Below are positions 3,889 to 27,929 of a stretch of 32,000 nucleotides of DNA, piece by piece. The stretch spans positions 3,810,001 to 3,842,000 of the forward strand of contig NZ_LT934425.1 in NCBI RefSeq assembly GCF_900232105.1, written 5' to 3'. Numbering within the stretch: the stretch's first letter is position 1; each line of letters opens with the position of its first letter. The notes beneath the pieces were generated by a model. The model saw only the letters and a list, made by a program, of their open reading frames with translations, was not told the origin of the DNA and searched no databases. The DNA is from Candidatus Kuenenia stuttgartensis (lineage in GTDB: Bacteria > Planctomycetota > Brocadiia > Brocadiales > Brocadiaceae). Both the position numbers and the translations under genes were made by a program.

Positions 3889-4031
3889 TTCAGATAAATA
3901 ATAACCAGAAATTTAAATTAACAGGTCTAATGCCTTTATTAACACGTGTTTTCCCTTTACAGTCAGGAAAAGGAAGATTGAAGGGTAAACGTTACGGCAT
4001 TGCTTTTTGTTTGTCATTTTTAATACTTATC

Positions 4032-4181
4032 GGGAGCATTCCCGATTTTTTGTAAAAATGTCATTAGCAGGGGGGAGGGGAAGAATAGTAACTCAAGCTT
4101 CCAGCTTGAGGGTAAAACACCACAAGCAGGATGCTTGTGGTACAATGTACAATTAGTTAACCAAAAATCGGGAATGCTCCT
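4032..4181. repeat. MITE-like element sharing only its ~20-bp termini with the 141-bp MITE at 17336-17476
   Basis: The left end is gggagcattcccgattttttgt (4032-4053). The right end is accaaaaatcgggaatgctcc (to ~4180), its imperfect reverse complement. The core holds two hairpins (ctcaagcttccagcttgag; ccacaagcaggatgcttgtgg). No clear TSD, so this is probably an older copy. Confidence 0.5.
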
Positions 4182-4219
4182 GTTCAAACCATGTCCCCCG
4201 CTGGCGGGGGTGCAGGGGG

Positions 4220-5603
4220 CATAAGCGCTAACTTGTTTTAGGTATGCTCGAAGTATTTTGATATCTGTGTTTTTCGGATTCTTGTATTTTCTGCTAAAGA
4301 ACAAGCAATGTCATTCCAGCACTTAAGAACTTCCTGTAATGATAACGCTGGTTCTATAGCCCGTTTTACTTGATTAAGCATAAAAGCAAATTCACGCCAT
4401 TTGCTTTTAGTCTTCTTGCTTGACAATGAAGTATCCCCAGGGGGAAAAAGACGTAGCAAAATCTATTAGTTTTTCTGTCAAAAGAGCAACGAATAGTTTG
4501 CCATAAAGCCAAGCTTTTGAGCTATCATCATCGTATTTAGGTAAGTGTCCAAATTGTGCTATTTGTTTAAATCTTTTAAAGACCAGTTCAATTTGCCATC
4601 GAACTCGATACCATTCTAAGATATCAAAAGCGGTAAATTGATTTTCAGGAAACGTTGTGAATACTATTACGTACTTGGCATAAATAAGGGTCTCCGGTTT
4701 TAGTTCAATGCCCTTTTTGCTTGCATGTCTTTTAAGTTTTTTATGAGCTATTTTAATGGCTTCTTCTGTTTTGTGTATTATACAAAGACGACCTTTGACA
4801 TATTCAGTATTATCAACGTTTGGAATAAAAACGTTCCATGATTTTATAGCAAGGGGTCTTTTTAAATATTGGATTTCTTTCAATAAAGGAAAGGGTTTCT
4901 TTTCTTCGCCGAATATCCGTAGAGATTGCGAATTAACTCTAACGCTAAGATAAGCGCCTTTCCTTGTTGCATGATGAATTCCTTGGCCAGTACAGTAACC
5001 TCTGTCAGCTATAATATAATCATCTTTTTTCATCGGAAACTGCCGAAAAGATTCTCCTGTGCCTTCTCCTTCAGTTCCCGTAAGTTTAAAGAAATCGCAA
5101 GATAATGAAGGAACCTCAATACTATAATGAATGCGCCAAAGACTTCCTGTTTTCCCAGGTTCCTTTACTGTTGTTGCATCAAATAAGCGAAGATGAAAAT
5201 TATTCCGTTTATTAATTTGGAGGCCACGCTCACGGAATAAAGATAAACATAATTTATATAGCCATTCTTTGCTCTTTTTTAATCGCTTTAATAAGGCAAC
5301 ATCGGATAAATCTGCTAAGTTAGCACGCTTGGCTAGAACTACTGTTTCACGCAATGAATAGCCACATCCTAAATGAATTAATAATGTTCGAAGAAGCTTT
5401 TCTTCAGATTTATCCTTGCGCAAGCCTTTTAAAGCATTTGTATCAACGGCTAAACTTTTCCAATCGTTTGGGAAGAAAGTTCTTAGAAGATCCCAATCTT
5501 CTCTCATCATGGCTTTATCCTCCTATAGAGTGATTAGCGGGATAATTAACATAAAAATACCATGATGAATAAAATTTGTCAATAAAACAAGTTAGCGCTT
5601 ATG
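4220..5603 (-). mobile_element. Intact IS4-family insertion sequence (1,384 bp)
   Basis: It has perfect 21-bp terminal inverted repeats: CATAAGCGCTAACTTGTTTTA at 4220-4240 and its reverse complement at 5583-5603. It is flanked by an 11-bp direct repeat GGTGCAGGGGG (4209-4219 and 5604-5614), read as the target-site duplication. It carries a single transposase ORF. Confidence 0.92.
4407..5510 (-). CDS. IS4-family DDE transposase
   Basis: 367 aa. It contains IADRGY and the C-terminal YRVRWQIELVFKRFK, which matches the Y-2-R-3-E-6-K signature of IS4-type transposases. Confidence 0.9.
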   Translation of the reverse strand: MMREDWDLLRTFFPNDWKSLAVDTNALKGLRKDKSEEKLLRTLLIHLGCGYSLRETVVLAKRANLADLSDVALLKRLKKSKEWLYKLCLSLFRERGLQINKRNNFHLRLFDATTVKEPGKTGSLWRIHYSIEVPSLSCDFFKLTGTEGEGTGESFRQFPMKKDDYIIADRGYCTGQGIHHATRKGAYLSVRVNSQSLRIFGEEKKPFPLLKEIQYLKRPLAIKSWNVFIPNVDNTEYVKGRLCIIHKTEEAIKIAHKKLKRHASKKGIELKPETLIYAKYVIVFTTFPENQFTAFDILEWYRVRWQIELVFKRFKQIAQFGHLPKYDDDSSKAWLYGKLFVALLTEKLIDFATSFSPWGYFIVKQED

Positions 5604-5661
5604 GGTGCAGGGGGTGGACTGGATTTCTCCATCGATACAACTACCAATTCCGGAGGCTGCC

Positions 5662-8600
5662 ATGATACAAAGAAATTGTGTTGTTTTTACAGTATCAGCA
5701 ATTCTTTTTCTGATAGTATTTTCCATCCCATCGTTGATAGCAAGCCATGAAAACTCAAATAAACAATCATTCAAAAGCTCAATTCCGCAATCTACAATCC
5801 AAAACTTGTCCTCGACTTCGACCGGGGATCCGAAATTAGACTCGGCGGCATTTGCCCAGAAAACAAAGAAGCTTCAAATACCCTTTATAGCCAACAACGG
5901 ACAGGTAGATGAACAGGTGAAATTCTATGCCAATACATTTGGCGGGACGGTGTTCGTGACAAAAGACGGCGAGATTGTGTATGCGTTGCCGAATAATAGT
6001 TCAGAGTCGGGAGTTCGATGTTCGAAGAATCAAGAGGCAAAATGCATGATTCAGGGTCCACGAAACATGTCAAATACCACAAATCGTTTATCGTGCATCT
6101 TGCATCATGAAGCAAACATCCCATATTGTACCAATTGTCTTTTAGCTGGCATTGCTAAGAATATCGGTCAAGACACCCAGGGAGTTGCCATTAAAGAGAC
6201 GCTTGTAGGTGGCAGAGTTCATGAGATAACTGGAAATGAAAAGGCTGTAACAAAGGTGAGCTATTTTAAGGGAAATGACACATCTCAATGGAAAACCAAT
6301 ATTTCAGCATATGATGTAGTATCGCTTGGTGAAGTCTACGACGGTATAGAACTCAAATTAAAGGCGTATGGAAATAATGTCGAGAAGCTTTTTTGTGTAA
6401 AACCAGATGCAAACCCCGATCAAATACAGGTAAAGCTCAGTGGTGCAAAAGATTTGCGTGTAAATGACGAAGGGCAGCTTGAAGCAGAAACGGAATTGGG
6501 GATGGTTAAGTTTACAAAACCCATAGCATATCAGGAAATCGATGGGAATCGGGTGGCGGTAGATGTTGAATACGACATTCAGAATCCAGAAGTCGGGAGA
6601 CGGAATCAAAAAATTCCAAATTGGAAATCAGCAAGCTACAATAAAACACGGACAAAAAAGTTTGTCCATTCCACCCATAAACACAATCCAAATTCTGAAA
6701 TCCAAAATCCAAAATTGGAGTACGGCTTCAAAGTCGCCTCTTACGACAAAACATATGAACTAATCATCGACCCCCTACTAGCCTCCACATACCTAGGCGG
6801 GTCTGATAATGATTATGTTTATTCCCTTGCCCTCGATACGAGCGGGAATGTATATGTGACGGGGTATACCAAGTCATCAAACTTTCCTACGACGAGCGGG
6901 GCATATGATACCTCTTTTACTGGTGGTAATTATCAGGAACATGTCTTTGTCTCGAAGCTGGACGGTGGATTAACGAGCCTGCTGGCATCCACGTTCCTGG
7001 GCGGGTCTGATTATAATTGTGGTTATTCTCTAGCCCTCGACACAAGCGGGAATGTATATGTGACGGGGAAGACCGGGTCATCAGACTTTCCTACGACGAG
7101 CGGGGCATATGATACCTCTTTTACTGGTGGTAATTATCAGGAACATGTCTTTGTCTCGAAGCTGGACGGTGGATTAACGAGCCTGCTGGCATCCACGTTC
7201 CTGGGAGGGTCTGGTCAGGATTATGGTTATTCCCTCGCCCTCGACACGAGCGGGAATGTATATGTGACGGGGTATACTATGTCATCAGACTTTCCGACGA
7301 CGAGTGGGGCATATGATACCTCTCAAACTGGTTCTTCTGATGTCTTTGTCTCGAAGCTGAACAGTGGATTAACGAGCCTGCTGGCATCCACGTACCTGGG
7401 CGGGTCTAGTGATGATTATGGTTATTCCCTCGCCCTCGATACGAGCGGGAATGTATATGTGACGGGGTATACTAAGTCATCAGACTTTCCGACGATGAGT
7501 GGGGCATATGATACATCTTTGAGTCAAACTGGTTCTCATGATGTCTTTGTCTCGAAGCTGAACAGTGGATTAACGAGCCTGCTGGCATCCACGTACCTGG
7601 GCGAGCCTGGTTATAATGAGGGTCGTTCTCTTGCCCTCGACACGAGCGGGAATGTATATGTGACGGGGTATACTATGTCACCACTCTTTCCGACTACGAG
7701 CGGGGCATATGACACCTCTTATAATTATGGTTATGATGTCTTTGTATCTAAGCTGGACGGTGGATTAACGAGCCTGCTGGCATCCACGTATCTGGGCGGG
7801 CTTAGTGATGATTATGGTTATTCCCTCGCCCTCGACACGAACGGGAATGTGTATGTGACGGGGCAAACTGAGTCATCACGCTTTCCGACTACGAGGGGTG
7901 CATATGATACTTCCGATAGTGATGATTCTGATGTCTTTGTCTCGAAGCTGAACAGTGGATTAACGAGCCTGCTGGCATCCACGTACCTGGGCGGGTCTAA
8001 TGATGATGAGGGTTATTCTCTCGTCCTAGACACAAGCGGGAATGTATATGTAACGGGTTGGACTAGCGGAGGAGGCTTTCCGACTACGAGTGGGGCATAT
8101 GATACCTCTTATTATTATGGTTATGATGTCTTTGTATCTAAGCTGGACGGCAATCTTTCTGCCACATCAGCAACACCAACACCAACACCAACACCAACAC
8201 CAACACCAACACCAACTCCAACTACGTGTACTGACAGCTACGAGCCTAACAACAGTACGTCTGAAGCTTACGGACCTTTGCGTTCTGGATCGAGTTACAG
8301 TGGCAAGATTTGCTCGGATAGTGACGTGGATTGGTTTAAGGTGAATATAACAATCGAAGGTACAATATCACTGTCCTTAACGGTTCCGTCTTCCAATGAT
8401 TATGAATTAGAGCTGTATGATGCTTCTTATGCGAAAATCGTCAGTTCTACTAATGGGAGTGGTGTGAGCGAGTCGATTGACTACGATGCCACTTCAACGG
8501 GAAATTACTATATCAAGATATACGGATTCAGTGGCTCATCGAATACTACAAATTCATATACACTCACCTATACGTATACGTCTAAGACAACACCAACCCC

Positions 8601-8910
8601 TACAACAACGCTTACTCCAGGTGGTCACACTGCTGCCTTATCTGTAAGTCCGTCAGAAGTATCTCTATATGATTCTGTTGTAGTAACAGTCGTGGATTGG
8701 GATTTAAATACAACCAGTAGCTATGCCGATACTGGAAATGTGAGAATTAAATCAAATTCAGATACAACAGGCTTCTATCTTGGGTTAATGGAAATGAATG
8801 TGAACTCTGGCAGTTTTAAGGGTACATTCGTGACGGGCGATACGACAGACTTGTCTGCATCTCCTCGAAAAATAGGTGTTGGAGTAAATGATACTATAAC
8901 TGTGTCTTAG
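5662..8910 (+). CDS. SBBP beta-propeller repeat protein, paralog 2, 5' portion (truncated by MITE-created stop); includes PPC (pre-peptidase C-terminal)-like domain
   Basis: ATG 5662 is preferred over the track start 5605: GGAGG lies at 5652-5656 and the product starts MIQRNCVVFTVSAILFLIVFSIPSLIA, a signal peptide. There are seven SBBP blades (6775-8160) and a (TP)n linker. CTDSYEPNNS...DVDWFKV...YYIKIYGFSG is PPC-like, followed by an Ig-like module. The stop TAG 8908-8910 is built from the target TA plus the first G of the inserted element. Confidence 0.85.
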   Translation: MIQRNCVVFTVSAILFLIVFSIPSLIASHENSNKQSFKSSIPQSTIQNLSSTSTGDPKLDSAAFAQKTKKLQIPFIANNGQVDEQVKFYANTFGGTVFVTKDGEIVYALPNNSSESGVRCSKNQEAKCMIQGPRNMSNTTNRLSCILHHEANIPYCTNCLLAGIAKNIGQDTQGVAIKETLVGGRVHEITGNEKAVTKVSYFKGNDTSQWKTNISAYDVVSLGEVYDGIELKLKAYGNNVEKLFCVKPDANPDQIQVKLSGAKDLRVNDEGQLEAETELGMVKFTKPIAYQEIDGNRVAVDVEYDIQNPEVGRRNQKIPNWKSASYNKTRTKKFVHSTHKHNPNSEIQNPKLEYGFKVASYDKTYELIIDPLLASTYLGGSDNDYVYSLALDTSGNVYVTGYTKSSNFPTTSGAYDTSFTGGNYQEHVFVSKLDGGLTSLLASTFLGGSDYNCGYSLALDTSGNVYVTGKTGSSDFPTTSGAYDTSFTGGNYQEHVFVSKLDGGLTSLLASTFLGGSGQDYGYSLALDTSGNVYVTGYTMSSDFPTTSGAYDTSQTGSSDVFVSKLNSGLTSLLASTYLGGSSDDYGYSLALDTSGNVYVTGYTKSSDFPTMSGAYDTSLSQTGSHDVFVSKLNSGLTSLLASTYLGEPGYNEGRSLALDTSGNVYVTGYTMSPLFPTTSGAYDTSYNYGYDVFVSKLDGGLTSLLASTYLGGLSDDYGYSLALDTNGNVYVTGQTESSRFPTTRGAYDTSDSDDSDVFVSKLNSGLTSLLASTYLGGSNDDEGYSLVLDTSGNVYVTGWTSGGGFPTTSGAYDTSYYYGYDVFVSKLDGNLSATSATPTPTPTPTPTPTPTPTTCTDSYEPNNSTSEAYGPLRSGSSYSGKICSDSDVDWFKVNITIEGTISLSLTVPSSNDYELELYDASYAKIVSSTNGSGVSESIDYDATSTGNYYIKIYGFSGSSNTTNSYTLTYTYTSKTTPTPTTTLTPGGHTAALSVSPSEVSLYDSVVVTVVDWDLNTTSSYADTGNVRIKSNSDTTGFYLGLMEMNVNSGSFKGTFVTGDTTDLSASPRKIGVGVNDTITVS
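6775..8160 (+). repeat. Seven tandem SBBP blade repeats of paralog 2
   Basis: Same ~198-bp coding unit as 1072-2450. Blocks 6905-7085 and 7085-7265 are nearly identical at the DNA level. Confidence 0.9.
8171..8212 (+). repeat. (CAACAC)7 hexanucleotide microsatellite encoding a (TP)n linker
   Basis: Seven perfect CAACAC units read directly. The unit length is a multiple of 3, so copy-number change keeps the frame. Confidence 0.9.
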
Positions 8911-9008
8911 GCACTGTAAATAAATAAAGGTATCAAGTAGATCAATTTCATGCTCTGGAAACATGCAATCAAGGCTTCAAAGTGAGACGTTAATTTATTT
9001 ACAGCGCC
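8910..9008 (+). mobile_element. 99-bp MITE, copy 1 (TIR GGCRCTGTAAATAAAT, TSD TTA)
   Basis: The termini GGCACTGTAAATAAAT...ATTTATTTACAGCGCC are inverted. TTA is duplicated at 8907-8909 and 9009-9011. The sequence is the exact reverse complement of 14170-14268 (99/99, checked base by base). Confidence 0.85.
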
Positions 9009-9387
9009 TTACTCAGATAATCTAGATGCTGATGGTAATAGCACAACAATAACAAATACGGTTTCAGTAACGGGTACAACTGGAACACCAACCCCTACAA
9101 CAACGACAGAACCAAAGGTTGCGGCAGGGGATTCACACACCCTTGCCCTAAAGTATGACGGCACAGTCTGGACATGGGGACATAATGGGGATGGGCAATT
9201 AGGGGATGGAACATTTACCAACAGGACTACTCCTGTTCAGGTAAACGACCTCAGTGACGTCATTGCCATTGATGGTGGACAGCATCATCACAGCCTTGCA
9301 GTAAAATCGGATGGTACCGTATGGGCGTGGGGGCATAATGATGATGGTCATCTGGGAGATAGAACGTACACAAACAGAAGTTCCCCC

Positions 9388-10521
9388 GTGAAGGTAACTG
9401 ATCTCAGTGGTGCTATCGCAGTTGCTGGTGGAGATTCACACAGTCTAGCCTTGAAATCAGATGGTACCGTATGGGCGTGGGGAGCGAACTGGTATGGACA
9501 ATTAGGAGATGGTACAACCGCAGACAGCACTACACCTGTTCAGGTAAGTAACCTCAGCGATGTTATTGCCATTGCTGGGGGTGATAATCACAGCCTTGCT
9601 TTAAAGTACGATGGTACTGTCTGGGCATGGGGTGAAAATGCTTATGGTAAATTGGGAGACGAGACAGAAACGAATAGAACTGCACCCGTGCAGGTAGGCA
9701 GCCTCAGCAATGTTAATGCCATAGCAGTTGGCGACCAGCACAGTCTGGCACTAAAATCAGACGGCACGGTCTGGGCATGGGGAAATAACGAAGGCGGTCA
9801 ATTGGGAGACGGAACAACTACAAATAGAAATACACCCATACAAGTGAATTTCTACGGCCAGTATATTACTACGATCGCGGCTGGATATAAGCATAACCTT
9901 GCTGTGGATTCAGAAGGTTATGCTTGGGCGTGGGGGTATGGTTGGGATGGTCAGTTGGGAGACGGGGCTAACGCAGATAGCTACATTCCTGTGCAAGTGA
10001 TAGGACTTCGCTTTGTTACGGCCATTGTAGCTGGCGATTGGCATAGCATTGCCGTGAAGTCAGACGGCACGGTCTGGGCATGGGGGTATAATGGGGATGG
10101 TGAACTGGGAGACGGTACAACCTCAAGCAGAAGCACCCCGGCTCAGGTTGATATTAATTTAGGTCAGGCATCAGATTGTGGCGAGACTAATATAATGAGC
10201 TGGTCTGCCGCCAAATTGAAAATTAAAAGAAAGAAAAGTAAAGATATAACCATAACAGCCGCTCAAGGTGATGTGATAGAAGATGATAATACCATTTTTA
10301 AATGTCCCGTTGAAGGCCTGACGGTTACTGCAGTTGTTGATAGTAAAACTGAAGGAAAGAAGCTCATATCGGTTTCACCAACAAGCGCTGTAACTGATGA
10401 AAACGGTGATGTGACGTTCACGATAAAAGCCAAGAATAAAAAGGGAAATGCAAAGGTCTATTTTTCAATAGAAGAATGGGGTGAGTGGGTAACTACGGAA
10501 TTATCAGTAAAGGTAAGGTAA
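9388..10521 (+). CDS. RCC1-repeat (7 blades) plus Ig-like domain; orphaned 3' portion of SBBP paralog 2
   Basis: The track ORF starts at GTG 9388, but the same frame is open and homologous from 9010 (YSDNLDADGNSTTITNTVSVTG..., with the first RCC1 blade at ~9118). There are seven repeats of G(D)xHSLALKSDGTVWAWGxNxxGQLGDG. This is the same frame (frame 1) as 5662-8910, and no plausible start/RBS exists near 9010. Confidence 0.8.
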   Translation: MKVTDLSGAIAVAGGDSHSLALKSDGTVWAWGANWYGQLGDGTTADSTTPVQVSNLSDVIAIAGGDNHSLALKYDGTVWAWGENAYGKLGDETETNRTAPVQVGSLSNVNAIAVGDQHSLALKSDGTVWAWGNNEGGQLGDGTTTNRNTPIQVNFYGQYITTIAAGYKHNLAVDSEGYAWAWGYGWDGQLGDGANADSYIPVQVIGLRFVTAIVAGDWHSIAVKSDGTVWAWGYNGDGELGDGTTSSRSTPAQVDINLGQASDCGETNIMSWSAAKLKIKRKKSKDITITAAQGDVIEDDNTIFKCPVEGLTVTAVVDSKTEGKKLISVSPTSAVTDENGDVTFTIKAKNKKGNAKVYFSIEEWGEWVTTELSVKVR

Positions 10522-10716
10522 CTAATCCATGATATTTGTAATACATATCGGATATAATTTTGACGTAGGAAAATTTTCTGCTATCGAGTGCAGTGAAATG
10601 AGGGAAGGATAAGGGAAATTTATTCGCACAGGTTTCATGGTATTTTTTAACTTGTCAATTCATCTTAAAAAAGAAGGGGAAAAAGCCATGAAAAGAATTG
10701 CTTATAAAATGGTGGG

Positions 10717-10788
10717 TGAATTAGGGGACACTTCCCATATTTCTTGATTGATCTGGTGGAATAATAAGGGAAGTGTCCCTATATTTCT
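10717..10788. repeat. Hairpin repeat unit 1 (GGGGACACTTCCC-N31-GGGAAGTGTCCC)
   Basis: The arms at 10723-10735 and 10767-10778 are reverse complements. The unit shares GAATTAGGG.ACAC...CCCATATTTCTT...TGGTGG..AATAAGGGA...CCTATATTTC with unit 3. Confidence 0.7.
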
Positions 10789-10975
10789 CGGAGAGGGCGA
10801 AATCTGTAATCGTATAAGTAGAAAGAGAAAAACGGTAGAACTATGCGGTGTCGTCGGAGTTAAGAGTGACGGTATGACTGTAAAAGGTATATAAATGAAC
10901 TTGGGATGTCTAATTATTCAGGTTGATGACCGTAACGCAACAAGGAATTGTTACGGCTAATAGGGATAACTTCAG

Positions 10976-11041
10976 TATTGAGACACTTCCCGTATTTCAG
11001 AAGTTAATCTGGGAAGTGTCCCTCTATTCCCCCTCTATTCC
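10976..11041. repeat. Hairpin repeat unit 2 (GAGACACTTCCC-N19-GGGAAGTGTCCC)
   Basis: The arms lie at 10980-10991 and 11011-11022. The tail CCCTCTATTC is duplicated in tandem (11021-11041). Confidence 0.65.
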
Positions 11042-11092
11042 CTATAGTTAAAGGGAATATTAAGTGAACTTCGGCGGGAATAAATTATTGGA

Positions 11093-11168
11093 GAATTAGG
11101 GACACAGCCCATATTTCTTACTTTATTTGGTGGGGAAATAAGGGATATTTCCTATATTTCTATATTTT
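11093..11168. repeat. Hairpin repeat unit 3 (degenerate copy)
   Basis: The sequence is GAATTAGGGACACAGCCCATATTTCTT...TTTGGTGGGGAAATAAGGGATATTTCCTATATTTC. The arms have diverged, so stem pairing is largely lost. Confidence 0.55.
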
Positions 11169-11243
11169 AGAATAAATGTTTAAGGCTGATCTGCAGCAAA
11201 CAAAGGGAAAATCCATAAACCACATACATAACAGGAGGCTATA

Positions 11244-14183
11244 ATGCTAATAAAACATCCTTTAAAGAAAAGGCTTATTAAATCTGTTTTGTTATTAATG
11301 GGACTGGTAATAGCGCTAACCCTTTACCCATTGACCAAAAACAACTCAAACCTTGCTAATGATCAGGATATAGTCAGCAATTCAAATATCCTATACCTCT
11401 CAACTATCAATCCTGGTAAGGATTGGCAGACTACCATAAGCATTACAAACTCAGAATGTAAATGCAAACAGAGAAGGGTTAACGCAACGCTTACCGCATA
11501 CGACAAAGATGGTTTATCCCTTGAGGTTATTAAAAACGTTATTAGGCTTAGAGCAAATAAAACAAAGACCTTTCATTCTCAAACATTACCCACCGATGCT
11601 GAATCCTTAAGGGTTGAGTCAAATGGCAGCATTATATGCAATGCAATTTTCAAAACACGTGATGGCACAAAATCAGAGGTAGTCCCTGCCATCAAAGAAT
11701 CATCCAGACAGCTCGATTTCCCGGCGCTGCTCAGTTACGATGACCTCTATATATACAAGACCATTACCCTTTTAAACCCAAACACAAACCCCGCAAGTAT
11801 TGATATTGTAGCCTTGGATAAGGACGGATATGAGATAGACCTTAATGATTTACCATCCCTTTCGTCAATGGAAAGCAAAACCTTCTCCCTCGTGGATATC
11901 TTTGACCCAAGAATATTAAAAGACCTGTCAACGGTGAGGGTCAATTCAGATAGTAATATTATTGGACTTCAGCTTGTGGACTATCCCGCGGTTGACCTTG
12001 TTGGGCTTCCGGCCCTGACCACCACCAGCAAGGGCTGGACGTTTCCAATAGCAACCAAAGGAGAAAACTTCGATTTGTGGACAAAAGTGGGTATTTTAAA
12101 TCCTTGTAATAACATAGCCAATGTTATCATTGAGGCATTTGATACCAGCAGTAACTCACTGGGGATTATCCATAGTCAAACCATTTTGCCGGGTGTAACC
12201 TATGTTATCAATACCGCTAATATTGATACTATCGAGGGAGATGCCATACCTTCAAATACCGCTATTCTCAAGATCACTTCTACCCAGTCTGTAATTGGGT
12301 ATGAAGTCATTGGTGTTCTAAATGGCAGCGGTCTTTCAGCAGTTATGGGGATTCCTGACGAAGACCAAACTTCGGTGGGATTTGAGCTAATCGGTTCAAT
12401 GGACGGAGAGGTGCTTAATACCTATTCAATGATGCGGATGGGCGATGGGAGCGTGAAGTCAACGGTTGGGAGTTTGGGGAGTGAAGAATGGAGAAAAAAT
12501 GTAAACATAATACCCGACACCTCAGAAATAATCTCTGCACCAACAGCAGTCAGTGAAATAAATGAAAATGAATGTGTTCCTCCAAAACAACTTAATTCAA
12601 AATACTGGCTGGGATTTCCACTTAAATACCCGCCTTCTAAAAACTGGACTCCATACACTGCCAATATAACCAGTGTTTTTGACCATGCTATGAAAACACT
12701 GGATGGAAAGAATCATGTGGTGGCATATACGGGGGAAGGAGGTTCTAAGAAAGCAGATGGTACATGTGATAAAAATGGTAATGGATGCGGTTATAAGAAA
12801 AGCGATGAAAGCCCATTTATTATAAACAATCATTATGTAGGCGTTAAATCGTCCGGCAGCGCAACGGTTTTACAGTACGATGATCATCGGGGATACGATT
12901 ACCCTGTTAGAGAAGAGCGTGTCTATGCTGCGGCTGATGGATGTGTTCATAAGGCACAATGGGATAAGGAAAATGGTGTGGAAAATGGTGGTGGTTATTA
13001 TATAAAGATAAAGCATAACACAAGCAATGGTGTCTACTATACTAGTTATCTCCATTTAAAAAAAGATTCTTTTCGGGTGGGTAAGGGTGACACTGTGACG
13101 GCAGGACAATGGATTGCCGTATCAGGTAATACAAGTACAAGTACAAGTGGCGAAACATTCCCCTATCACCTTCATTTCGAAGTGAGAAAAACTTATGATC
13201 TACAAGGGAATGTTGTTGACCCCTATGGCTGGCATCCATCGGTAAAAACTGATGATCCATACACAGGAAAAAAGAAAGAAACCCTTTGGGAGGCGGCAAC
13301 TGAACTTCCACAAATTACCTCAATAAGTCCTTCAAGTGAAGGTGCTGGCACTTCAGTAACGATAACGGGCAAGAGATTTGGTGCTGGAGCAGGTACGGTA
13401 AAATTTGGTACGGTAAAAGCCGAGGTCACTTCATGGGGTGATACTGAAATAGTTGCGACTGTGCCTGATGGTAATGGAGAAGTATATGTAAGGGTGACAA
13501 CTGCCGGAGAAGAAACAGCAGTAACAAGCACAGGAGATGATGATGAAGAGAAATATGTATTTACATACACATCATCACCAACTACTTGTATTGCGACAGT
13601 TTCTTCAGGTCAGTGGAAGGGAGAATACTACAACAACAAGGATTTAAGCGGCAGTCCAGTCATGACAAGGGACGATGGAAGCGGGAATCTCAATTTCGAC
13701 TGGGGTAGTGGTAGTCCAAATAGCTCTAGCCCTTGTGTCATAGGCACTGATGATTTTTCCGTTCGCTGGACGAGGACGGTTTCTTTCGATGCAAACACCT
13801 ATCGTTTCAAGGTAACGTGTGACGATGGTTTCAGACTTTACATAGATGGCATTTCGAAGCTTGAGAAATGGATCGATCAAGGCTCAACAGAGTACACGGT
13901 GGATGTATCACTTTCGTCAGGGAAACACACTATAAAACTGGAGTACTATGAGGCTGGCGGGGGCGCAGTTGCGAAACTATCATGGGAGGTGGCATCATCT
14001 ACAATTTCCGTTACTTCTTTTAAAATCAACAACGATGCATCCAGCACAACGAGTCGGACGGTAACGCTGAATAATATGGCAACGGGTAGTCCTACACAAT
14101 ATATGGCAAGTGAATCATCCAGTTTTAGCGACGCCAGTTGGCAGACGTACTCAGTGAGTCCAAGCTTTAGGCGCTGTAAATAA
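11244..14183 (+). CDS. Secreted multidomain M23 metallopeptidase / IPT-TIG / PA14 protein, 5' portion (truncated by MITE)
   Basis: AGGAGG lies 6 nt upstream of the ATG, and there is an N-terminal hydrophobic anchor. An approximately threefold ~110-aa N-terminal module is followed by M23 motifs HRGYD (HxxxD) and YHLHFE (HxH). The IPT/TIG-like segment is ITSISPSSEGAGTSVTITGKRFG. The first PA14 domain is QWKGEYYNN...DDFSVRWTRT...KLEYYEAGGGAVAKLSWE. The ORF ends 4 codons into the MITE (RRCK*). Confidence 0.85.
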   Translation: MLIKHPLKKRLIKSVLLLMGLVIALTLYPLTKNNSNLANDQDIVSNSNILYLSTINPGKDWQTTISITNSECKCKQRRVNATLTAYDKDGLSLEVIKNVIRLRANKTKTFHSQTLPTDAESLRVESNGSIICNAIFKTRDGTKSEVVPAIKESSRQLDFPALLSYDDLYIYKTITLLNPNTNPASIDIVALDKDGYEIDLNDLPSLSSMESKTFSLVDIFDPRILKDLSTVRVNSDSNIIGLQLVDYPAVDLVGLPALTTTSKGWTFPIATKGENFDLWTKVGILNPCNNIANVIIEAFDTSSNSLGIIHSQTILPGVTYVINTANIDTIEGDAIPSNTAILKITSTQSVIGYEVIGVLNGSGLSAVMGIPDEDQTSVGFELIGSMDGEVLNTYSMMRMGDGSVKSTVGSLGSEEWRKNVNIIPDTSEIISAPTAVSEINENECVPPKQLNSKYWLGFPLKYPPSKNWTPYTANITSVFDHAMKTLDGKNHVVAYTGEGGSKKADGTCDKNGNGCGYKKSDESPFIINNHYVGVKSSGSATVLQYDDHRGYDYPVREERVYAAADGCVHKAQWDKENGVENGGGYYIKIKHNTSNGVYYTSYLHLKKDSFRVGKGDTVTAGQWIAVSGNTSTSTSGETFPYHLHFEVRKTYDLQGNVVDPYGWHPSVKTDDPYTGKKKETLWEAATELPQITSISPSSEGAGTSVTITGKRFGAGAGTVKFGTVKAEVTSWGDTEIVATVPDGNGEVYVRVTTAGEETAVTSTGDDDEEKYVFTYTSSPTTCIATVSSGQWKGEYYNNKDLSGSPVMTRDDGSGNLNFDWGSGSPNSSSPCVIGTDDFSVRWTRTVSFDANTYRFKVTCDDGFRLYIDGISKLEKWIDQGSTEYTVDVSLSSGKHTIKLEYYEAGGGAVAKLSWEVASSTISVTSFKINNDASSTTSRTVTLNNMATGSPTQYMASESSSFSDASWQTYSVSPSFRRCK

Positions 14184-14268
14184 ATTAACGTCTCACTTTG
14201 AAGCCTTGATTGCATGTTTCCAGAGCATGAAATTGATCTACTTGATACCTTTATTTATTTACAGTGCC
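14170..14268 (-). mobile_element. 99-bp MITE, copy 2 (inverted relative to copy 1)
   Basis: It is the exact reverse complement of 8910-9008. TTA is duplicated at 14167-14169 and 14269-14271. Confidence 0.85.
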
Positions 14269-16529
14269 TTACCTTGAGTTCAGGTAATGGAAATAAGACC
14301 GTATACTTTAAGGTTAAAAACAGTGCTAATACTGAATCATCAGTGGTGAGTGACAGTATTACCCTGAGTGAGTCTACTTCCTGCACTGCGGCAGTTTCTT
14401 CAGGTCAGTGGAAGGGGGAATACTACAACAATAAGAATTTAAGCGGCAGTCCAGTCATGACAAGAGACGATGGAAGCAGGAATCTCAATTTCGATTGGGG
14501 CAGCGGAAGTCCAAGCAGTTCGTGTGGTATAAATAGTGACGATTTCTCAGTTCGCTGGACGAGGACGGTTTCTTTCGATGCCAACACCTATCGCTTCACG
14601 GTAACGTGTGATGATGGTTTCAGACTTTACATAGATGGCATTTCGAAGCTTGAGAAATGGATCGATCAAGGCTCAACAGAGTACACGGTGGATGTATCAC
14701 TTTCGTCAGGAGATCACACTATAAAACTGGAGTACTATGAGGCTGGCGGGGGCGCAGTTGCCAAACTATCCTGGGAGAAAGTATCCAGCAATTCCTGCAC
14801 AGCCACAGTCTCTTCAGACCGATGGAAGGGAGAATATTACAACAACAAGGATTTAAGCGGCAGTCCAGTCATGACAAGAGACGATGGAAGCGGGAATCTC
14901 AATTTCGACTGGGGTAGCGGAAGTCCAAGCAGTTCGTGTGGTATAAATAGTGACGATTTCTCAGTTCGCTGGACGAGGACGGTTTCTTTCGATGCCAACA
15001 CCTATCGCTTCACGGTAACGTGTGATGATGGTTTCAGACTTTACATAGATGGCATTTCGAAGCTTGAGAAATGGATCGATCAAGGCTCAACAGAGTACAC
15101 GGTGGATGTATCACTTTCGTCAGGGAATTACACCATAAAAATGGAGTACTATGAAGCTGATGGGGGCGCTGTCGCGAAACTATCATGGGAGGTGGCATCA
15201 TCTGGTAGTGTGCCTGGCAGCATTACCGACCTTACAGCAACGCCTGAGTGTGATGGCACTGCGTCTCAGGTACGGCTGAACTGGTCTGCGGCAAGTAACG
15301 CAACCTCGTATGACGTCTACCGCAACGGCAGTTTGTATTACAGTGGGGTATCAGGGACACAATTCATAAATAGTTCCAATATTACAACTGGAATGTCTTA
15401 TTCTTACTACGTTCAGGCCAAGAACTCTTATGGTTTTACTAACTCCAATACTGTTTCTGCAACGGCAATAACTTGTGTCAGCAATATGCCTGGCAGCATT
15501 ACTGACCTTACGGCCACAGCTGAGTGTGATGGTACAACTTCTCAGATACGGCTGAACTGGTCTGCGGCAAGTAACGCAACCTCGTATGATGTCTACCGCA
15601 ACGGCAGTTTGTATTACAGTGGGGTATCAGGGACACAATTCATAAATAGTTCCAATATTACAACTGGAATATCTTATTCTTACTACGTTCAGGCCAAGAA
15701 CTCTTATGGTTCTACCAACTCCAATACTGTTTCTGCAACGGCAATAACTTGTGTCAGCAATATGCCTGGCAGCATTACTGACCTTACGGCCACAGCTGAG
15801 TGTGATGGCACAACTTCTCAGATACGGCTGAATTGGTCTGCTGCAAGCAATGCAACCTCGTATGATGTCTACCGCAACGGCAGTTTGTATTACAGTGGGG
15901 TATCAGTGACACAGTTCATCAATAGTTCCAATATTACAACGGGAACGTCTTATTCTTACCATGTCCAGGCCAAGAACTCTTATGGTTCTACTAACTCCAA
16001 TACTGTTTCGGCAACGGCGAAAACTTGCGGCGGGTCTACCAGTCAATCAGAGCGCATTACTAACGGCAGCTTTTCTTCCGGTACAAGCGGATGGACGCTA
16101 TCGAGTGATTTTTGGGCAGGCACAAATCTTTCTAACTATCGCACCTCACCGGGCTATGCAGCGGGAGGCGTAGACAGTAGTGGAACGCCAAAAAACAATG
16201 CGTATGGTTCCATGTACCAAGCAGTAACTATCCCATCCAATGCAACTTCGGCCACTATCAGTTTTTGGTATAACATAACAACATCAAATGAATCAGGATA
16301 TGATGCGCTCTACACAGTTATCAAAAATTCTTCGGGGAGTCATTTAGCAACAGTTGCTACCTTCAGCAATGCCGATAAAGGAACATTAGGAAGTTACAGC
16401 AAAAAAAGCCTTGATGTAACCTCATACAAAGGGCAGACCGTCACAATATATTTTCTGGCAATGACTGATTCTGCTAATACTACGGTATTCAGAATTGACG
16501 ATGTCAGCCTTATGTCTGATGGAAATTAA
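14214..16529 (+). CDS. 3' portion of the M23/PA14 protein: 2x PA14, 3x FN3-like, C-terminal CBM/galactose-binding-like domain
   Basis: The track ATG 14214 lies inside the MITE and has no SD. Genuine coding sequence resumes at 14272 (TLSSGNGNKTVYFKVKN) in the same frame (frame 3) as 11244-14183. There are two PA14 copies, three 92-aa repeats PGSITDLTATAECDGT..IRLNWSAASNATSYDVYRNG, and a terminal NGSFSSGTSGW...VFRIDDVSL jelly-roll-like domain. Confidence 0.8.
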   Translation: MFPEHEIDLLDTFIYLQCLTLSSGNGNKTVYFKVKNSANTESSVVSDSITLSESTSCTAAVSSGQWKGEYYNNKNLSGSPVMTRDDGSRNLNFDWGSGSPSSSCGINSDDFSVRWTRTVSFDANTYRFTVTCDDGFRLYIDGISKLEKWIDQGSTEYTVDVSLSSGDHTIKLEYYEAGGGAVAKLSWEKVSSNSCTATVSSDRWKGEYYNNKDLSGSPVMTRDDGSGNLNFDWGSGSPSSSCGINSDDFSVRWTRTVSFDANTYRFTVTCDDGFRLYIDGISKLEKWIDQGSTEYTVDVSLSSGNYTIKMEYYEADGGAVAKLSWEVASSGSVPGSITDLTATPECDGTASQVRLNWSAASNATSYDVYRNGSLYYSGVSGTQFINSSNITTGMSYSYYVQAKNSYGFTNSNTVSATAITCVSNMPGSITDLTATAECDGTTSQIRLNWSAASNATSYDVYRNGSLYYSGVSGTQFINSSNITTGISYSYYVQAKNSYGSTNSNTVSATAITCVSNMPGSITDLTATAECDGTTSQIRLNWSAASNATSYDVYRNGSLYYSGVSVTQFINSSNITTGTSYSYHVQAKNSYGSTNSNTVSATAKTCGGSTSQSERITNGSFSSGTSGWTLSSDFWAGTNLSNYRTSPGYAAGGVDSSGTPKNNAYGSMYQAVTIPSNATSATISFWYNITTSNESGYDALYTVIKNSSGSHLATVATFSNADKGTLGSYSKKSLDVTSYKGQTVTIYFLAMTDSANTTVFRIDDVSLMSDGN
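14382..15209 (+). repeat. Two tandem 414-bp PA14-coding repeats (third, more distant copy at ~13587-14000)
   Basis: Copies start at tgcac... 14382 and 14796. Long stretches are identical, for example gatgatggtttcagactttacatagatggcatttcgaagcttgagaaatggatcgatcaaggctcaacagagtacacggtggatgtatcactttcgtcagg. Confidence 0.9.
15212..16039 (+). repeat. Three tandem 276-bp FN3-like coding repeats
   Basis: gcctggcagcattac starts at 15212, 15488 and 15764, giving a period of exactly 276 bp. Copies 2 and 3 are nearly identical. Confidence 0.9.
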
Positions 16530-16615
16530 GAAATTTTCCTTTTTTTAAGCTGAATACAATTTGTACGTTTTGTAAAAACGAAACATTTGTGAATGAACAA
16601 AAGGGGTCAAATGAA

Positions 16616-16917
16616 CAAAAGGGGTTACACCTTGATTAGTGATTTAATTTCTTCTAATCGTTTATTAATTTCATTTTCTTCAGATATCTTTGATTTCATA
16701 ATAGTTACTCGCCAACTTATGGAAGAATAACCAAGACCAAACAAATTCCCGATTTCCTGGTTATTAAAAATATTCCTTCGCTCATTTTCTCGTGATAAGA
16801 TGTGATAGTAAGCCACTTCAAATTCTATGCGCCATTGTCTTGTCATGTCAGACAAGATAGCAAAATTACCTTCTATTGCCAACAGCATAATCACTAATCA
16901 AGGTGTGACCCCTTTTG
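16616..16917. mobile_element. ~300-bp element bounded by 27-bp inverted repeats, enclosing a deleted RayT/IS200-like ORF
   Basis: The left arm CAAAAGGGGTTACACCTTGATTAGTGA (16616-16642) and right arm TCACTAATCAAGGTGTGACCCCTTTTG (16891-16917) pair at 26/27. A partial extra copy of the outer arm (AATGAACAAAAGGGGT) sits directly in tandem at 16592-16607. Confidence 0.6.
16625..16846 (-). pseudogene. Internally deleted Y1 (IS200-like / REP-associated, RayT-type) transposase remnant
   Basis: MTRQWRIEFEVAYYHILSRENERRNIF matches the conserved N-terminus of RayT-like proteins (xRxxRIExxGAxYHVxxRGNxRxxIF). It joins directly to a C-terminal HTH-like tail (EIGNLFGLGYSSISWRV). The catalytic HUH/Tyr core is absent. 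Family recognition is from memory only. Confidence 0.5.
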
Positions 16918-17186
16918 CGCCTCCCGAACAGTACGATTGGTATGCTCCTGGAGTTGGCTTCATCAGACAAATCATTAAAGAAACGCGAGAAATGATAATA
17001 AACAAGTCAGGGTATCTCCGTGGAGGCTCTGAAGAAATAACTGTGCAATTGGAATCATTCAAAAAATGATGCGAAGCCAAGAGACCGTCAGGATAGAGGA
17101 AGGAATTGGTATATTGGTTTTAATTTCTCAACCTTATATAAATTTTATCAAGGTAATTTTAGTATAAAGATATACAGGCGATCACC

Positions 17187-18007
17187 ATGATTACAAAACA
17201 AGACTATATTTTATATTTGTTGATCTTGCTTGTCCTTTTTGAAGGTTGTGCAAAAAGATATCCTCTTGGCACGAAAGAAGAACAATGGCAAGCCTTGAGC
17301 CCACAACAGCAGGCGGAACATACTACAAAGCAATAGGGTGCATTCCCGATTTTTTGTGACTTCCGCCATGTTTTAATAAAACGTACAGTAGTGTTAACCC
17401 TGACAGGGTTTCAAACCCTGTCAGGGTTGTTTTGCCCCGACTCCATGAACGCTTACAAAAAATCGGGAATGCTCCCAAGCAATATCAGATAGACGAAGAA
17501 AGAAGAAAAAGGCAGGAAGAATACCGGCAGCAAAAAGAAAGAGAAGATGCAGAGGCGATAAGATTAGAAAAGGAACGCATTTTACAGCTTTATAGGAATG
17601 CGCGTTACGGCGATATTATTCAGGTGAACATATCTGGAGGCAGCATTGCCTTTATCGGAGAAAGAAAAGGTTACGAACCTTTGTCCTTCGATCTGGTGAG
17701 AGGCGAGAGGAAAAGGATTCCATTCTATCACCACGATAAACAAATAACCTATCAAACAGACATCTGGGTAGCGTATGACAACAACGCCTTTTATTTTGAT
17801 GTTGGAGATGACCAGAAATATGAACAGAGTACAGATAAGATAGTTATTTTAGATAATGGACGCTGGGATGAAGGGAAGACATATCGCCCAAAAACACTCG
17901 ATAAGAGCACCTATAGTCAGGCGCATGGCATAAAGGTTTTTATACGGTATAAACTATTGCCCGGTATGCAACGAAAAGGGGCGTATCATTATTACCCGCC
18001 TCAATGA
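17187..18007 (+). pseudogene. Small lipoprotein/signal-anchored protein gene split by a 141-bp MITE
   Basis: The 5' ORF 17187-17336 encodes MITKQDYILYLLILLVLFEGCAKRY...AEHTTKQ*, with the TAG formed at the junction. The 3' ORF is the track 17432-18007. Removing the element plus one TSD copy (149 bp) restores the frame: ...TTKQ-YQIDEERRKRQEE... Confidence 0.7.
17336..17476. mobile_element. 141-bp MITE (22-bp TIR GGGWGCATTCCCGATTTTTTGT, 8-bp TSD AAGCAATA)
   Basis: TIRs lie at 17336-17357 and 17455-17476 (21/22 match). AAGCAATA is duplicated at 17328-17335 and 17477-17484. The core has a perfect hairpin, aaccctgacagggtttcaaaccctgtcagggtt. Confidence 0.8.
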
Positions 18008-18234
18008 AGTGAGTTAATTTCTAAATTATCTTATAACTGTTGTACGGTATTTGTGCTAAATTTGCGCTAAAATCAATCCAAAAGGATAGAATTAATTGAA
18101 ATGAATAGAATTGATATAACTCCAACAATCCCTGAATTTTCAAGGTAAAACAGGAAACCAGCCCAATATCAAGGACTTAAGAATTTTCAATATTTCACAT
18201 TTGTAACCTGAACCCATGAGTTTATACGGATAAT

Positions 18235-18430: not shown

Positions 18431-19525
18431 TTATTTCTTCATGTGTTTTTTCAATTCGTTTACGTATTGCGGCAACTGTCTGTACAAATGCTTTTTCTTG
18501 CGTGCTTTTGCCTTTGATAATGCATAAGAGGCAAGTATTGGCGTTGCAATTGTTGCGTCACAATAGACAACTACGTGGTTCTTTATCTCTTCTATCCGCA
18601 TTTTGCCCCACGAAATAGCTTCACTAGGCGTTGCCCCGGAAAGCCCTCCCCATTGAGGCGCATCGGTGGTAATCTGAATAAAGTAGTCGTGCCCCCCCTT
18701 ATTTATATCGAGTATTTGAGCAAGGGTCGGCTGGGTTTGCATATAGAAGTTTTTTGGCGAGCCGCCTCCAATGCTTACTACACCATTTAATGTGCTGTTA
18801 AATACTATAGCAGTGGATTGAATAACATCAATATCGGTATCGATTACAAGGTTGTTTCCTTGTAATTTCAGATACGACAAATTCATGCCGATGGATGAAT
18901 CTCCGGGCGATGAAACGAAGACAGGTACATTATACTTTGCTGCCTGCGCGACAAAACTCAATTGCGGTGACGACGTTTCGGAGAGAACCGCCTTCCCTAG
19001 CAGATAATGAAAATCAGCAGTAGAAATAGGTTCAGTATTTGAAATCCCCTTTGTTACGTCCTGGATAAATTTGTCGGTCTTCAGGAGCAGTTCATCGGTG
19101 ATAAAAATATCATAAATTCGTTCAATACCAGCATGATATAATTCGGTATCATCCACCCGGAAATCTCCCTGATGAATGGGCAAGTTTAAGGCAAAGTGGA
19201 GATCGTGGTAGAGATTGGCGCCGGTAGAGATAATAAAATCAACAAATCCTTTTTCCATAAGGCTTATGAGAGTTCCGCCCATGCCAGTGGGGGTCATTGC
19301 GCCGGAGAGCGTTACGCCGACGGTAACATCTTTGCTAAGCATATGGCAGTAAAGCTTGCAGGCCTCTGCGAGTCTTCCTCCATTAAATGCCCCCGAATGG
19401 CTAAATACGTCAACGAGATCACTAACGCTCATCCCCTTCTTCAAAAATTGCGGAAGTATTTGCGGTTTGCATAAATATTTTCTTTGTAATTGACACTGGT
19501 TCGTTCGTTTTGTTTTATCAGGCAT
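18431..19525 (-). CDS. Deoxyhypusine synthase family protein (DHS-like / homospermidine-synthase-like)
   Basis: 364 aa. Family motifs recalled: FNGGRLAEA, ISTGANLYHD, GGGSPKNF, TTDAPQWGGLSGATPSEAISWGK. Confidence 0.8.
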   Translation of the reverse strand: MPDKTKRTNQCQLQRKYLCKPQILPQFLKKGMSVSDLVDVFSHSGAFNGGRLAEACKLYCHMLSKDVTVGVTLSGAMTPTGMGGTLISLMEKGFVDFIISTGANLYHDLHFALNLPIHQGDFRVDDTELYHAGIERIYDIFITDELLLKTDKFIQDVTKGISNTEPISTADFHYLLGKAVLSETSSPQLSFVAQAAKYNVPVFVSSPGDSSIGMNLSYLKLQGNNLVIDTDIDVIQSTAIVFNSTLNGVVSIGGGSPKNFYMQTQPTLAQILDINKGGHDYFIQITTDAPQWGGLSGATPSEAISWGKMRIEEIKNHVVVYCDATIATPILASYALSKAKARKKKHLYRQLPQYVNELKKHMKK

Positions 19526-27887: not shown

Positions 27888-27929
27888 ACAAGGGGAGCAT
27901 TCACAAATATTTGTAGATTCCTCATTCTT

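Follow-up and report, generated by a model that had tools for sequence, protein, structure and literature searches.

A small element with ISKra4-type ends, very probably a MITE, splits a 223-codon gene of Candidatus Kuenenia stuttgartiensis

In a 32,000-nt stretch of the Candidatus Kuenenia stuttgartiensis genome (the window, to which all coordinates refer), a short reading frame starting at ATG 17187 in frame 3 is followed by a second one, 17432-18007, in frame 2, which raises the question of whether these are two genes or one gene with an insert and, if the latter, what moved the insert. Our analysis indicated that 17336-17476 is very probably a non-autonomous transposable element (MITE) with ISKra4-type ends, inserted by cut-and-paste or copy-and-paste DDE transposition. 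The MITE had already been proposed in an earlier note on this DNA, and the proposal is now supported by the TIRs, TSD statistics, an empty site, continuous homologues, and an IS with the same ends.

The element and the gene around it

The features of the locus, with the element named according to our preferred reading, are as follows.

17187-17335, plus strand: 5' gene fragment, codons 1-49 plus 2 nt, as aligned to intact homologues
17328-17335, no strand: left TSD copy, AAGCAATA, read directly and recomputed
17336-17476, no strand: very probable MITE, 141 bp, with no ORF of its own, folding as a long hairpin
17336-17357, plus strand: left TIR, GGGTGCATTCCCGATTTTTTGT, read directly and recomputed
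17396-17428, no strand: internal perfect palindrome, AACCCTGACAGGGTTTCAAACCCTGTCAGGGTT (33 nt), followed by GTTTTG
17455-17476, minus strand: right TIR, ACAAAAAATCGGGAATGCTCCC, whose reverse complement GGGAGCATTCCCGATTTTTTGT is the family consensus
17477-17484, no strand: right TSD copy, AAGCAATA, read directly and recomputed
17477-18007, plus strand: 3' gene fragment, codons 48-223 of the intact protein, lacking a start and signal peptide

Direct reading and recomputation bore out the anatomy first described for this copy, namely 141 bp bounded by 22-bp TIRs that are complementary at 21/22 positions, with a TSD of 8 bp; the AAGCAATA direct repeat is exactly 8 bp long, and the flanking 9-mers differ. 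With three mismatches allowed, the window holds four copies of the terminus, where 100 shuffles gave an expectation of 0.00; the only ORFs crossing the element were chance ones no longer than 51 aa. Folding of the element as RNA gave a long hairpin (-65.7 kcal/mol; z = -10). Viewed from outside, either end consists of a small hairpin and a T-run, formed on the right by the TIR together with 17477-17478. The palindrome at 17396-17428 with its GTTTTG appears terminator-like on the plus strand. No promoter-like site was found within the element, and Rfam 15 covariance models gave no match with E ≤ 1 across 3900-18200.

The change from frame 3 to frame 2 arises because the element and one TSD together measure 149 bp, which is 2 mod 3. 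Joining 17187-17335 to 17485-18007 yielded a 672-nt ORF of 223 aa reading ...AEHTTKQYQIDEERRKRQ..., so the earlier claim that 149 bp accounts for the frame change, and that excision restores the ORF, withstood recomputation. The insertion point lies at codon 49/50 of this gene. The downstream ORF (17432-18007) takes its TTG and 15 codons (17432-17476, MPRLHERLQKIGNAP) from the element; the earlier note was right about their origin but had counted 14. It had also credited the insertion with generating a TAG at the junction. The TAG is present, because a target with TA at its end meets an element whose first base is G, but it is a coincidence and no property of the family, as TA precedes the terminus in 8/209 cases (3.8%) against a background of 6.5%.

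The reconstructed protein had 32 homologues, more than 20 of them uninterrupted at about 223 aa, and the best, such as that of Ca. Brocadia pituitae, reached 89% identity at 100% coverage. These homologues run straight over the junction (...TTKQYQIDEERRKR; AEYTTKQYQIDEERRKR in the alignment), where Q49 never varies and Y50 varies little or not at all, according to the sample. All aligned homologues are single 223-aa proteins with an N-terminal hydrophobic segment and Cys21, and none among the homologues found starts independently where the downstream ORF does, so the continuity of the gene expected from the reconstruction is borne out. The orthologous site in B. pituitae (L119) is empty and holds a single AAGCAATA (...CACAAAGCAATATCAGATAG...).

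The 5' fragment encodes a signal-peptide-like N-terminus with the conserved Cys21, and the interrupted 223-aa protein is probably exported. The description "lipoprotein-like" is plausible and draws only on a conserved ...FEGC motif after the hydrophobic segment and on a predicted N-terminal helix. In an AlphaFold model built with 19 homologues (pLDDT 80), the reconstructed protein consists of this N-terminal hydrophobic helix, a long helix, and a beta domain; a PDB fold search with the model gave no match better than E 0.1, and a Pfam search with the reconstructed protein gave sub-threshold matches only.

Seven K. stuttgartiensis assemblies extend to this site, and all seven carry the same insertion; six span it, and the contig of the remaining one ends inside the element. 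The locus is 100% identical over 1 kb in the six and over the covered 696 bp in the seventh. A K. stuttgartiensis protein deposited as "partial" has its start, ...LPRLHERLQKIGNAPKQYQ, inside the element, and a set of 5.8 billion clustered proteins contained no intact version closer than 89% identity. In the population sampled, which is nearly clonal, the insertion thus seems to be fixed. The nearby deoxyhypusine-synthase-like gene (18431-19525) encodes an identical protein in several K. stuttgartiensis assemblies.

Comparison of the split gene with its B. pituitae counterpart gave a dN/dS of 0.12 at a dS of 0.42, and neither fragment has accumulated secondary stops or frameshifts. Judged from these sequence comparisons, the low dN/dS and lack of decay would fit a recent insertion and would also be compatible with a 3' part that is still in use. 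We read the gene as a pseudogene, because the remaining 174 codons have neither a start nor a signal peptide. It is very improbable that the two ORFs are instead separate functional genes, or that a co-opted element expresses a 191-aa product from TTG 17432. The undecayed fragments, the low dN/dS, the fixation across all sampled assemblies, and an AGGG five bases upstream of the TTG, within the element, speak for such a function; against it, every homologue is a single 223-aa protein with the hydrophobic segment and Cys21 that the 191-aa product lacks, and the element has no recognizable promoter. Moreover, fixation is little informative because the sampled assemblies are nearly clonal, and a low dN/dS is expected because the insertion would be recent relative to a dS of 0.42.

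A family defined by its ends in anammox genomes

A scan with an exact match to GGNGCATTCCCGATTTTTNGT, taking one genome per species, returned at least 118 stretches. Among the matches listed, almost all were from anammox bacteria, with carriers including Kuenenia hertensis, Kuenenia sp. Bin_40, several Brocadia genomes, Scalindua, and one Planctomycetota MAG, which shares a 1.1-kb deoxyhypusine-synthase-like region with the window at 83% identity; no K. stuttgartiensis locus was among them. The elements are abundant in Kuenenia, Brocadia, and this MAG. Long matches between these loci (at least 118) were considered as shared IS copies and rejected, as they are orthologous regions. The 227 termini in the matches listed (at most 4 substitutions) formed 78 paired elements of 98-589 bp. 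Perfect TSDs flanked 32 of the 78 (17 of 8 bp and 15 of 9 bp), and 44/78 had TSDs with at most one mismatch, against about 0 perfect and 0.12 near-perfect TSDs per 78 pairs when left flanks were paired with wrong right flanks. Searching by the terminus thus recovered a large anammox family with TSDs far in excess of the expected ~0. The TSDs differ from copy to copy, and lengths of 8 and 9 bp coexist within single genomes, so the TSD length of 8 bp given earlier holds for the window copy but not for the family, in which it is 8 or 9 bp. Among the same pairs, 34/78 had no recognizable TSD, including a second copy in the window. Besides the element at 17336-17476, the window contains two family features.

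4032-4181, no strand: second family member, 150 bp, with TIRs matching the consensus at 22/22 (left) and 20/22 (right) positions
27893-27914, plus strand: solo variant terminus, GGGAGCATTCACAAATATTTGT, without a partner

The family is defined only by its ~24-bp ends (GGGAGCATTCCCGATTTTTTGTAA), which begin GGGAGCATTCCC. Single-linkage clustering separated the interiors into at least 18 unrelated classes, and the two paired elements of the window have only their ends in common; the interior class of 4032-4181 has at least 14 members, several with 9-bp TSDs. The element at 17336-17476 has a 141-bp twin, 97% identical, at another locus in Kuenenia sp. Bin_40 (L020), flanked by the TSD CTTCGTGA, and further members of its interior class were found in Brocadia.

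About a third of the termini (71/227 among the matches listed) are partnerless. They head conserved 110-390-bp units whose opposite end is another palindromic module, such as GTAGGGTGG...CCACCCTAC, GGGTTCAGGTTTGTAACCTGAACC, or TTCGACTCCGCTCAGCATGAC... (e.g., L051, L077, L090, L094, L096; L025, L084, L101). Within 3 kb of solo termini, only a few weak candidates for diverged partner termini were detected, and no transposase lies beside them, the neighbors being two-component regulators, dehydrogenases, and other housekeeping genes. Longer members (300-589 bp) were considered as deletion derivatives and rejected, being mosaics of palindromic modules without a transposase remnant. Small palindromic repeats, nested in or fused with one another, thus seem to form a mosaic in anammox genomes.

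Such a mosaic invites comparison with REP/REPIN repeats, which are likewise short, abundant, palindromic, and combined with other palindromic units. To our knowledge, REPINs and IS200/IS605 elements generate no target duplication. A REP/REPIN repeat spread by a RAYT (Y1, IS200/IS605-like), or a structural intergenic palindrome, in place of a DDE-type MITE would agree with the small hairpin at each terminus, the perfect 33-nt palindrome of the interior, the many single termini adjoining other palindromic modules, and the IS200/IS605 transposases of K. stuttgartiensis. This reading is scarcely credible in view of the perfect 8/9-bp TSDs of 32/78 elements, all of which differ and form no part of the repeat unit, the precise empty site in B. 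pituitae, and the position of the element within a coding sequence; nor was a RAYT-like gene present beside the termini examined. The anammox family has TSDs and DDE-type TIRs, and REPINs have neither.

The Correia elements of Neisseria and the pneumococcal RUP duplicate TA and are related to other IS families. Like the family described here, these and other classical MITEs derived from IS ends are about 100-150 bp long, have TIRs and a TSD, occur in many copies in or near genes, form a long RNA hairpin, and depend on a transposase acting in trans; the anammox family differs from them in duplicating 8-9 bp, in its relation to ISKra4, and in bearing at least 18 unrelated interiors on the same ends.

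Two further observations concern targets and hosts. A occupies the second position outside the terminus in 104/209 cases (AC 44, AG 29; listed loci plus window), and 9-bp TSDs lean toward GTTnnnAAC, a pattern which suggests that the target preference may be weakly palindromic. Family termini, some with TSDs, were also present on contigs binned as Omnitrophota, Chloroflexota, Gammaproteobacteria, Maribellus, and Bacteroidales (L028, L070, L080, L086/L117, L087, L100); the most likely explanation is that anammox contigs were mis-binned, not that the family has spread outside the group.

The window contains other repeats. A near-palindromic element of ~101-105 bp (GGCACTGTAAATAAAT...ATTTATTTACAGCGCC) occurs in two copies, 8905-9013 and 14165-14273, which are 100% identical as reverse complements and are each flanked by TTA. 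At the first copy, TTA plus GG supplies the TAG that ends ORF 5605-8910, and the second copy reaches from the last part of ORF 11244-14183 into the first part of ORF 14214-16529. It looks like a second MITE family that splits large, repeat-rich, surface-protein-like genes, and the earlier statement that the junction at 17336 "again" generates TAG probably alludes to it. An IS of 1384 bp (4220-5603), bounded by perfect inverted repeats of 21 bp (CATAAGCGCTAACTTGTTTTA), encodes a DDE_Tnp_1 transposase of 367 aa on the minus strand (4407-5510). Its size agrees with that of a group listed for K. stuttgartiensis, "IS4-like ISCku3"; it lies 39 bp from the copy at 4032-4181 and between two large paralogues, 1-3888 and 5605-8910. 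Immediately upstream of the split gene, a 302-bp unit (16616-16917) with 29-nt inverted repeats (97% complementary) carries the motif ATGAACAAAAGGGGT twice at its left edge and is possibly another non-autonomous element. Intergenic hairpin units (GGGACACTTCCC...GGGAAGTGTCCC) are repeated at 10725-10778, 10984-11024, and 11099-11152, and a similar sequence lies near a family terminus in L091.

An ISKra4-family IS with matching ends

A metagenome scan for the terminus returned 61 stretches. In one of them (L188), two termini stand 2209 bp apart and enclose two genes, a 472-aa ORF that matches the NCBIfam model NF033572 "ISKra4 family transposase" (242.8 bits, cut-off 205, E 7e-72) and a 221-aa D12/Dam-like methyltransferase. 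Its close transposase homologues, at 86-92% identity, are attributed by name to Ca. Scalindua and called ISKra4 family transposase in their sources. A closed Scalindua sp. genome contains six copies of this IS (2208-2210 bp) and S. japonica one (2205 bp), all with perfect TSDs (9, 8, 8, 8, 9, and 8 bp in Scalindua sp.; 9 bp in S. japonica). The earlier note had suggested looking for an autonomous IS with the same ends; one exists as a 2.2-kb ISKra4-family element with 8/9-bp TSDs in Scalindua, and none was found in Kuenenia among the matches listed.

The left end of the Scalindua IS is GGGAGCATTCCCGATTTTTTGTAAAA, and its ends have the form GGG...CCC. MITE ends are identical to this left end over 24-26 nt (24/24, 26/26); of the TIRs of the window element, the left one matches it at 21/22 positions and the right one at 24/24. 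Similarity is confined to these 24-26-bp ends, the interiors being unrelated; the MITE is thus no simple deletion derivative of the IS seen. Relative to the Scalindua IS (L190-L196, L188), it lacks both the transposase and the passenger methyltransferase, and measures 141 bp against 2.2 kb. A 63%-related ISKra4-family element without the passenger gene (L198) ends in GGGAGCATACCCAAATTGTTGC, close to the variant terminus GGGAGCATTCCCAAATTTTTGC of several loci and to the solo terminus at 27893-27914, which resembles its TIR.

The passenger methyltransferase gene lies upstream of the transposase gene. It is intact in 5/6 copies of the closed genome and, in the comparison of L190-L197 and L188, frameshifted or truncated in L195 and L196. 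The IS copy of L188 sits inside another transposase gene (IS4/IS1380-like, DDE_Tnp_1; L188 2395-3351) and has no TSD.

Eukaryotic MULE-derived MITEs are non-autonomous derivatives of the Mutator superfamily that resemble their autonomous element in the TIRs only. The anammox family shares with them a Mutator-superfamily origin and this TIR-only similarity, and it differs in its bacterial host and much shorter TIRs, with common descent evidenced only at the level of the transposase superfamily. MULEs, like the prokaryotic elements, give 8-9-bp duplications (PMC3942029). For the Mutator-like elements of prokaryotes, ISKra4 among them, the published IR length is 18-39 bp, with C as the terminal base; their DRs measure 8 or 9 bp, and Planctomycetes are among their hosts (PMC3942029). 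The TSDs of 8 or 9 bp and the IR length of both the IS and the MITEs fit these published ISKra4 features; the MITE thus resembles ISKra4-family IS (p-MULT 4, Guerillot et al. 2014, PMC3942029) in its ends (24-26 nt), terminal G...C, IR length, and 8/9-bp TSDs. The searchable literature held no description of ISKra4 in anammox bacteria.

Among the matches listed, the autonomous IS was seen only in Scalindua and on unbinned metagenome contigs, never in Kuenenia or Brocadia, and the MITE family therefore occupies genera in which the Scalindua-type ISKra4 IS was not found. The 1.4 Mb of loci examined contained no homologue of the transposase, and the best 120 matches of the transposase protein searches included no Kuenenia or Brocadia name; the transposase cluster has one partial 258-aa member labeled only "Candidatus Brocadiaceae bacterium". 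ISKra4 is absent from the 38 transposase groups of three K. stuttgartiensis genomes, a few of which are unclassified "transposase" groups, and the species carries ISL3, IS66-like (ISCku5/7), ISAs1, and IS200/IS605 transposases (PMC7709395 Table S8). The failure to find a transposase of this kind for K. stuttgartiensis makes the element a probable orphan in that species.

This raises the alternative that the MITE was moved by another 8-bp-duplicating family of the host (ISL3, IS66-like ISCku5/7, or ISAs1), its match to ISKra4 ends reflecting shared ancestry or coincidence. ISL3 and IS66 typically duplicate 8 bp. The presence of these transposases in a host without an annotated ISKra4, and the limitation of the common sequence between the MITE and the Scalindua IS to the ends, agree with such a mover. 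We nevertheless consider it distinctly unlikely, since identity over 24-26 consecutive terminal bases greatly exceeds what chance would give, the IS and the MITEs show the same mix of 8- and 9-bp TSDs, and the 63%-related ISKra4 element (L198) carries a variant TIR also found among the MITEs. In addition, the only readable ISL3 end (B. pituitae, L120, ~13900) is GGGGTCATCGTGGAAAC, which is unrelated to the family ends. ISL3 as a partner, a candidate suggested by PMC7814187, was rejected on inspection of the remnant beside the B. pituitae orthologue, which has unrelated ends at a locus without a family terminus.

Proposed mechanism and meaning

Our preferred reading, a MITE with ISKra4-type ends, implies the following course of events. 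A transposase cut AAGCAATA with a stagger of 8 bp, and AAGCAATA was duplicated on repair; the insertion ends the N-terminal 49 codons at the fortuitous TAG and shifts the frame. An ISKra4-type transposase may have moved the MITE in trans by binding the common 24-bp ends, a proposal based on sequence comparison. K. stuttgartiensis would since have been without such a transposase, and the copy would now be immobile because the host no longer carries one. The hairpins and T-runs of the MITE may also terminate transcription from the gene's own promoter, with a polar effect.

A broader scenario would have one ISKra4-type end pair repeatedly capturing unrelated palindromic modules (at least 18 interiors and many one-ended units) and spreading in Kuenenia, Brocadia, and relatives without a transposase, the elements being kept as portable bidirectional terminators or insulators and the past mover being a transposase transiently transferred from Scalindua-like donors. 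As a whole, we regard this scenario as rather unlikely.

For annotation, the 49-aa and 191-aa calls made in every K. stuttgartiensis assembly represent two halves of one inactivated gene, and the N-terminus of the deposited 191-aa protein is element sequence. MITE copies, inside which several contigs terminate, also help explain contig breaks in MAGs. MITEs in general, and how they relate to IS ends, are already well understood, and the finding opens no long-standing question. It ties the MITEs of these bacteria to a Mutator-like (ISKra4) transposase. The searchable literature contained no relevant description of MITEs in anammox bacteria, and the family adds a previously undescribed, large layer of small non-autonomous elements to anammox genomes already known as transposase-rich.
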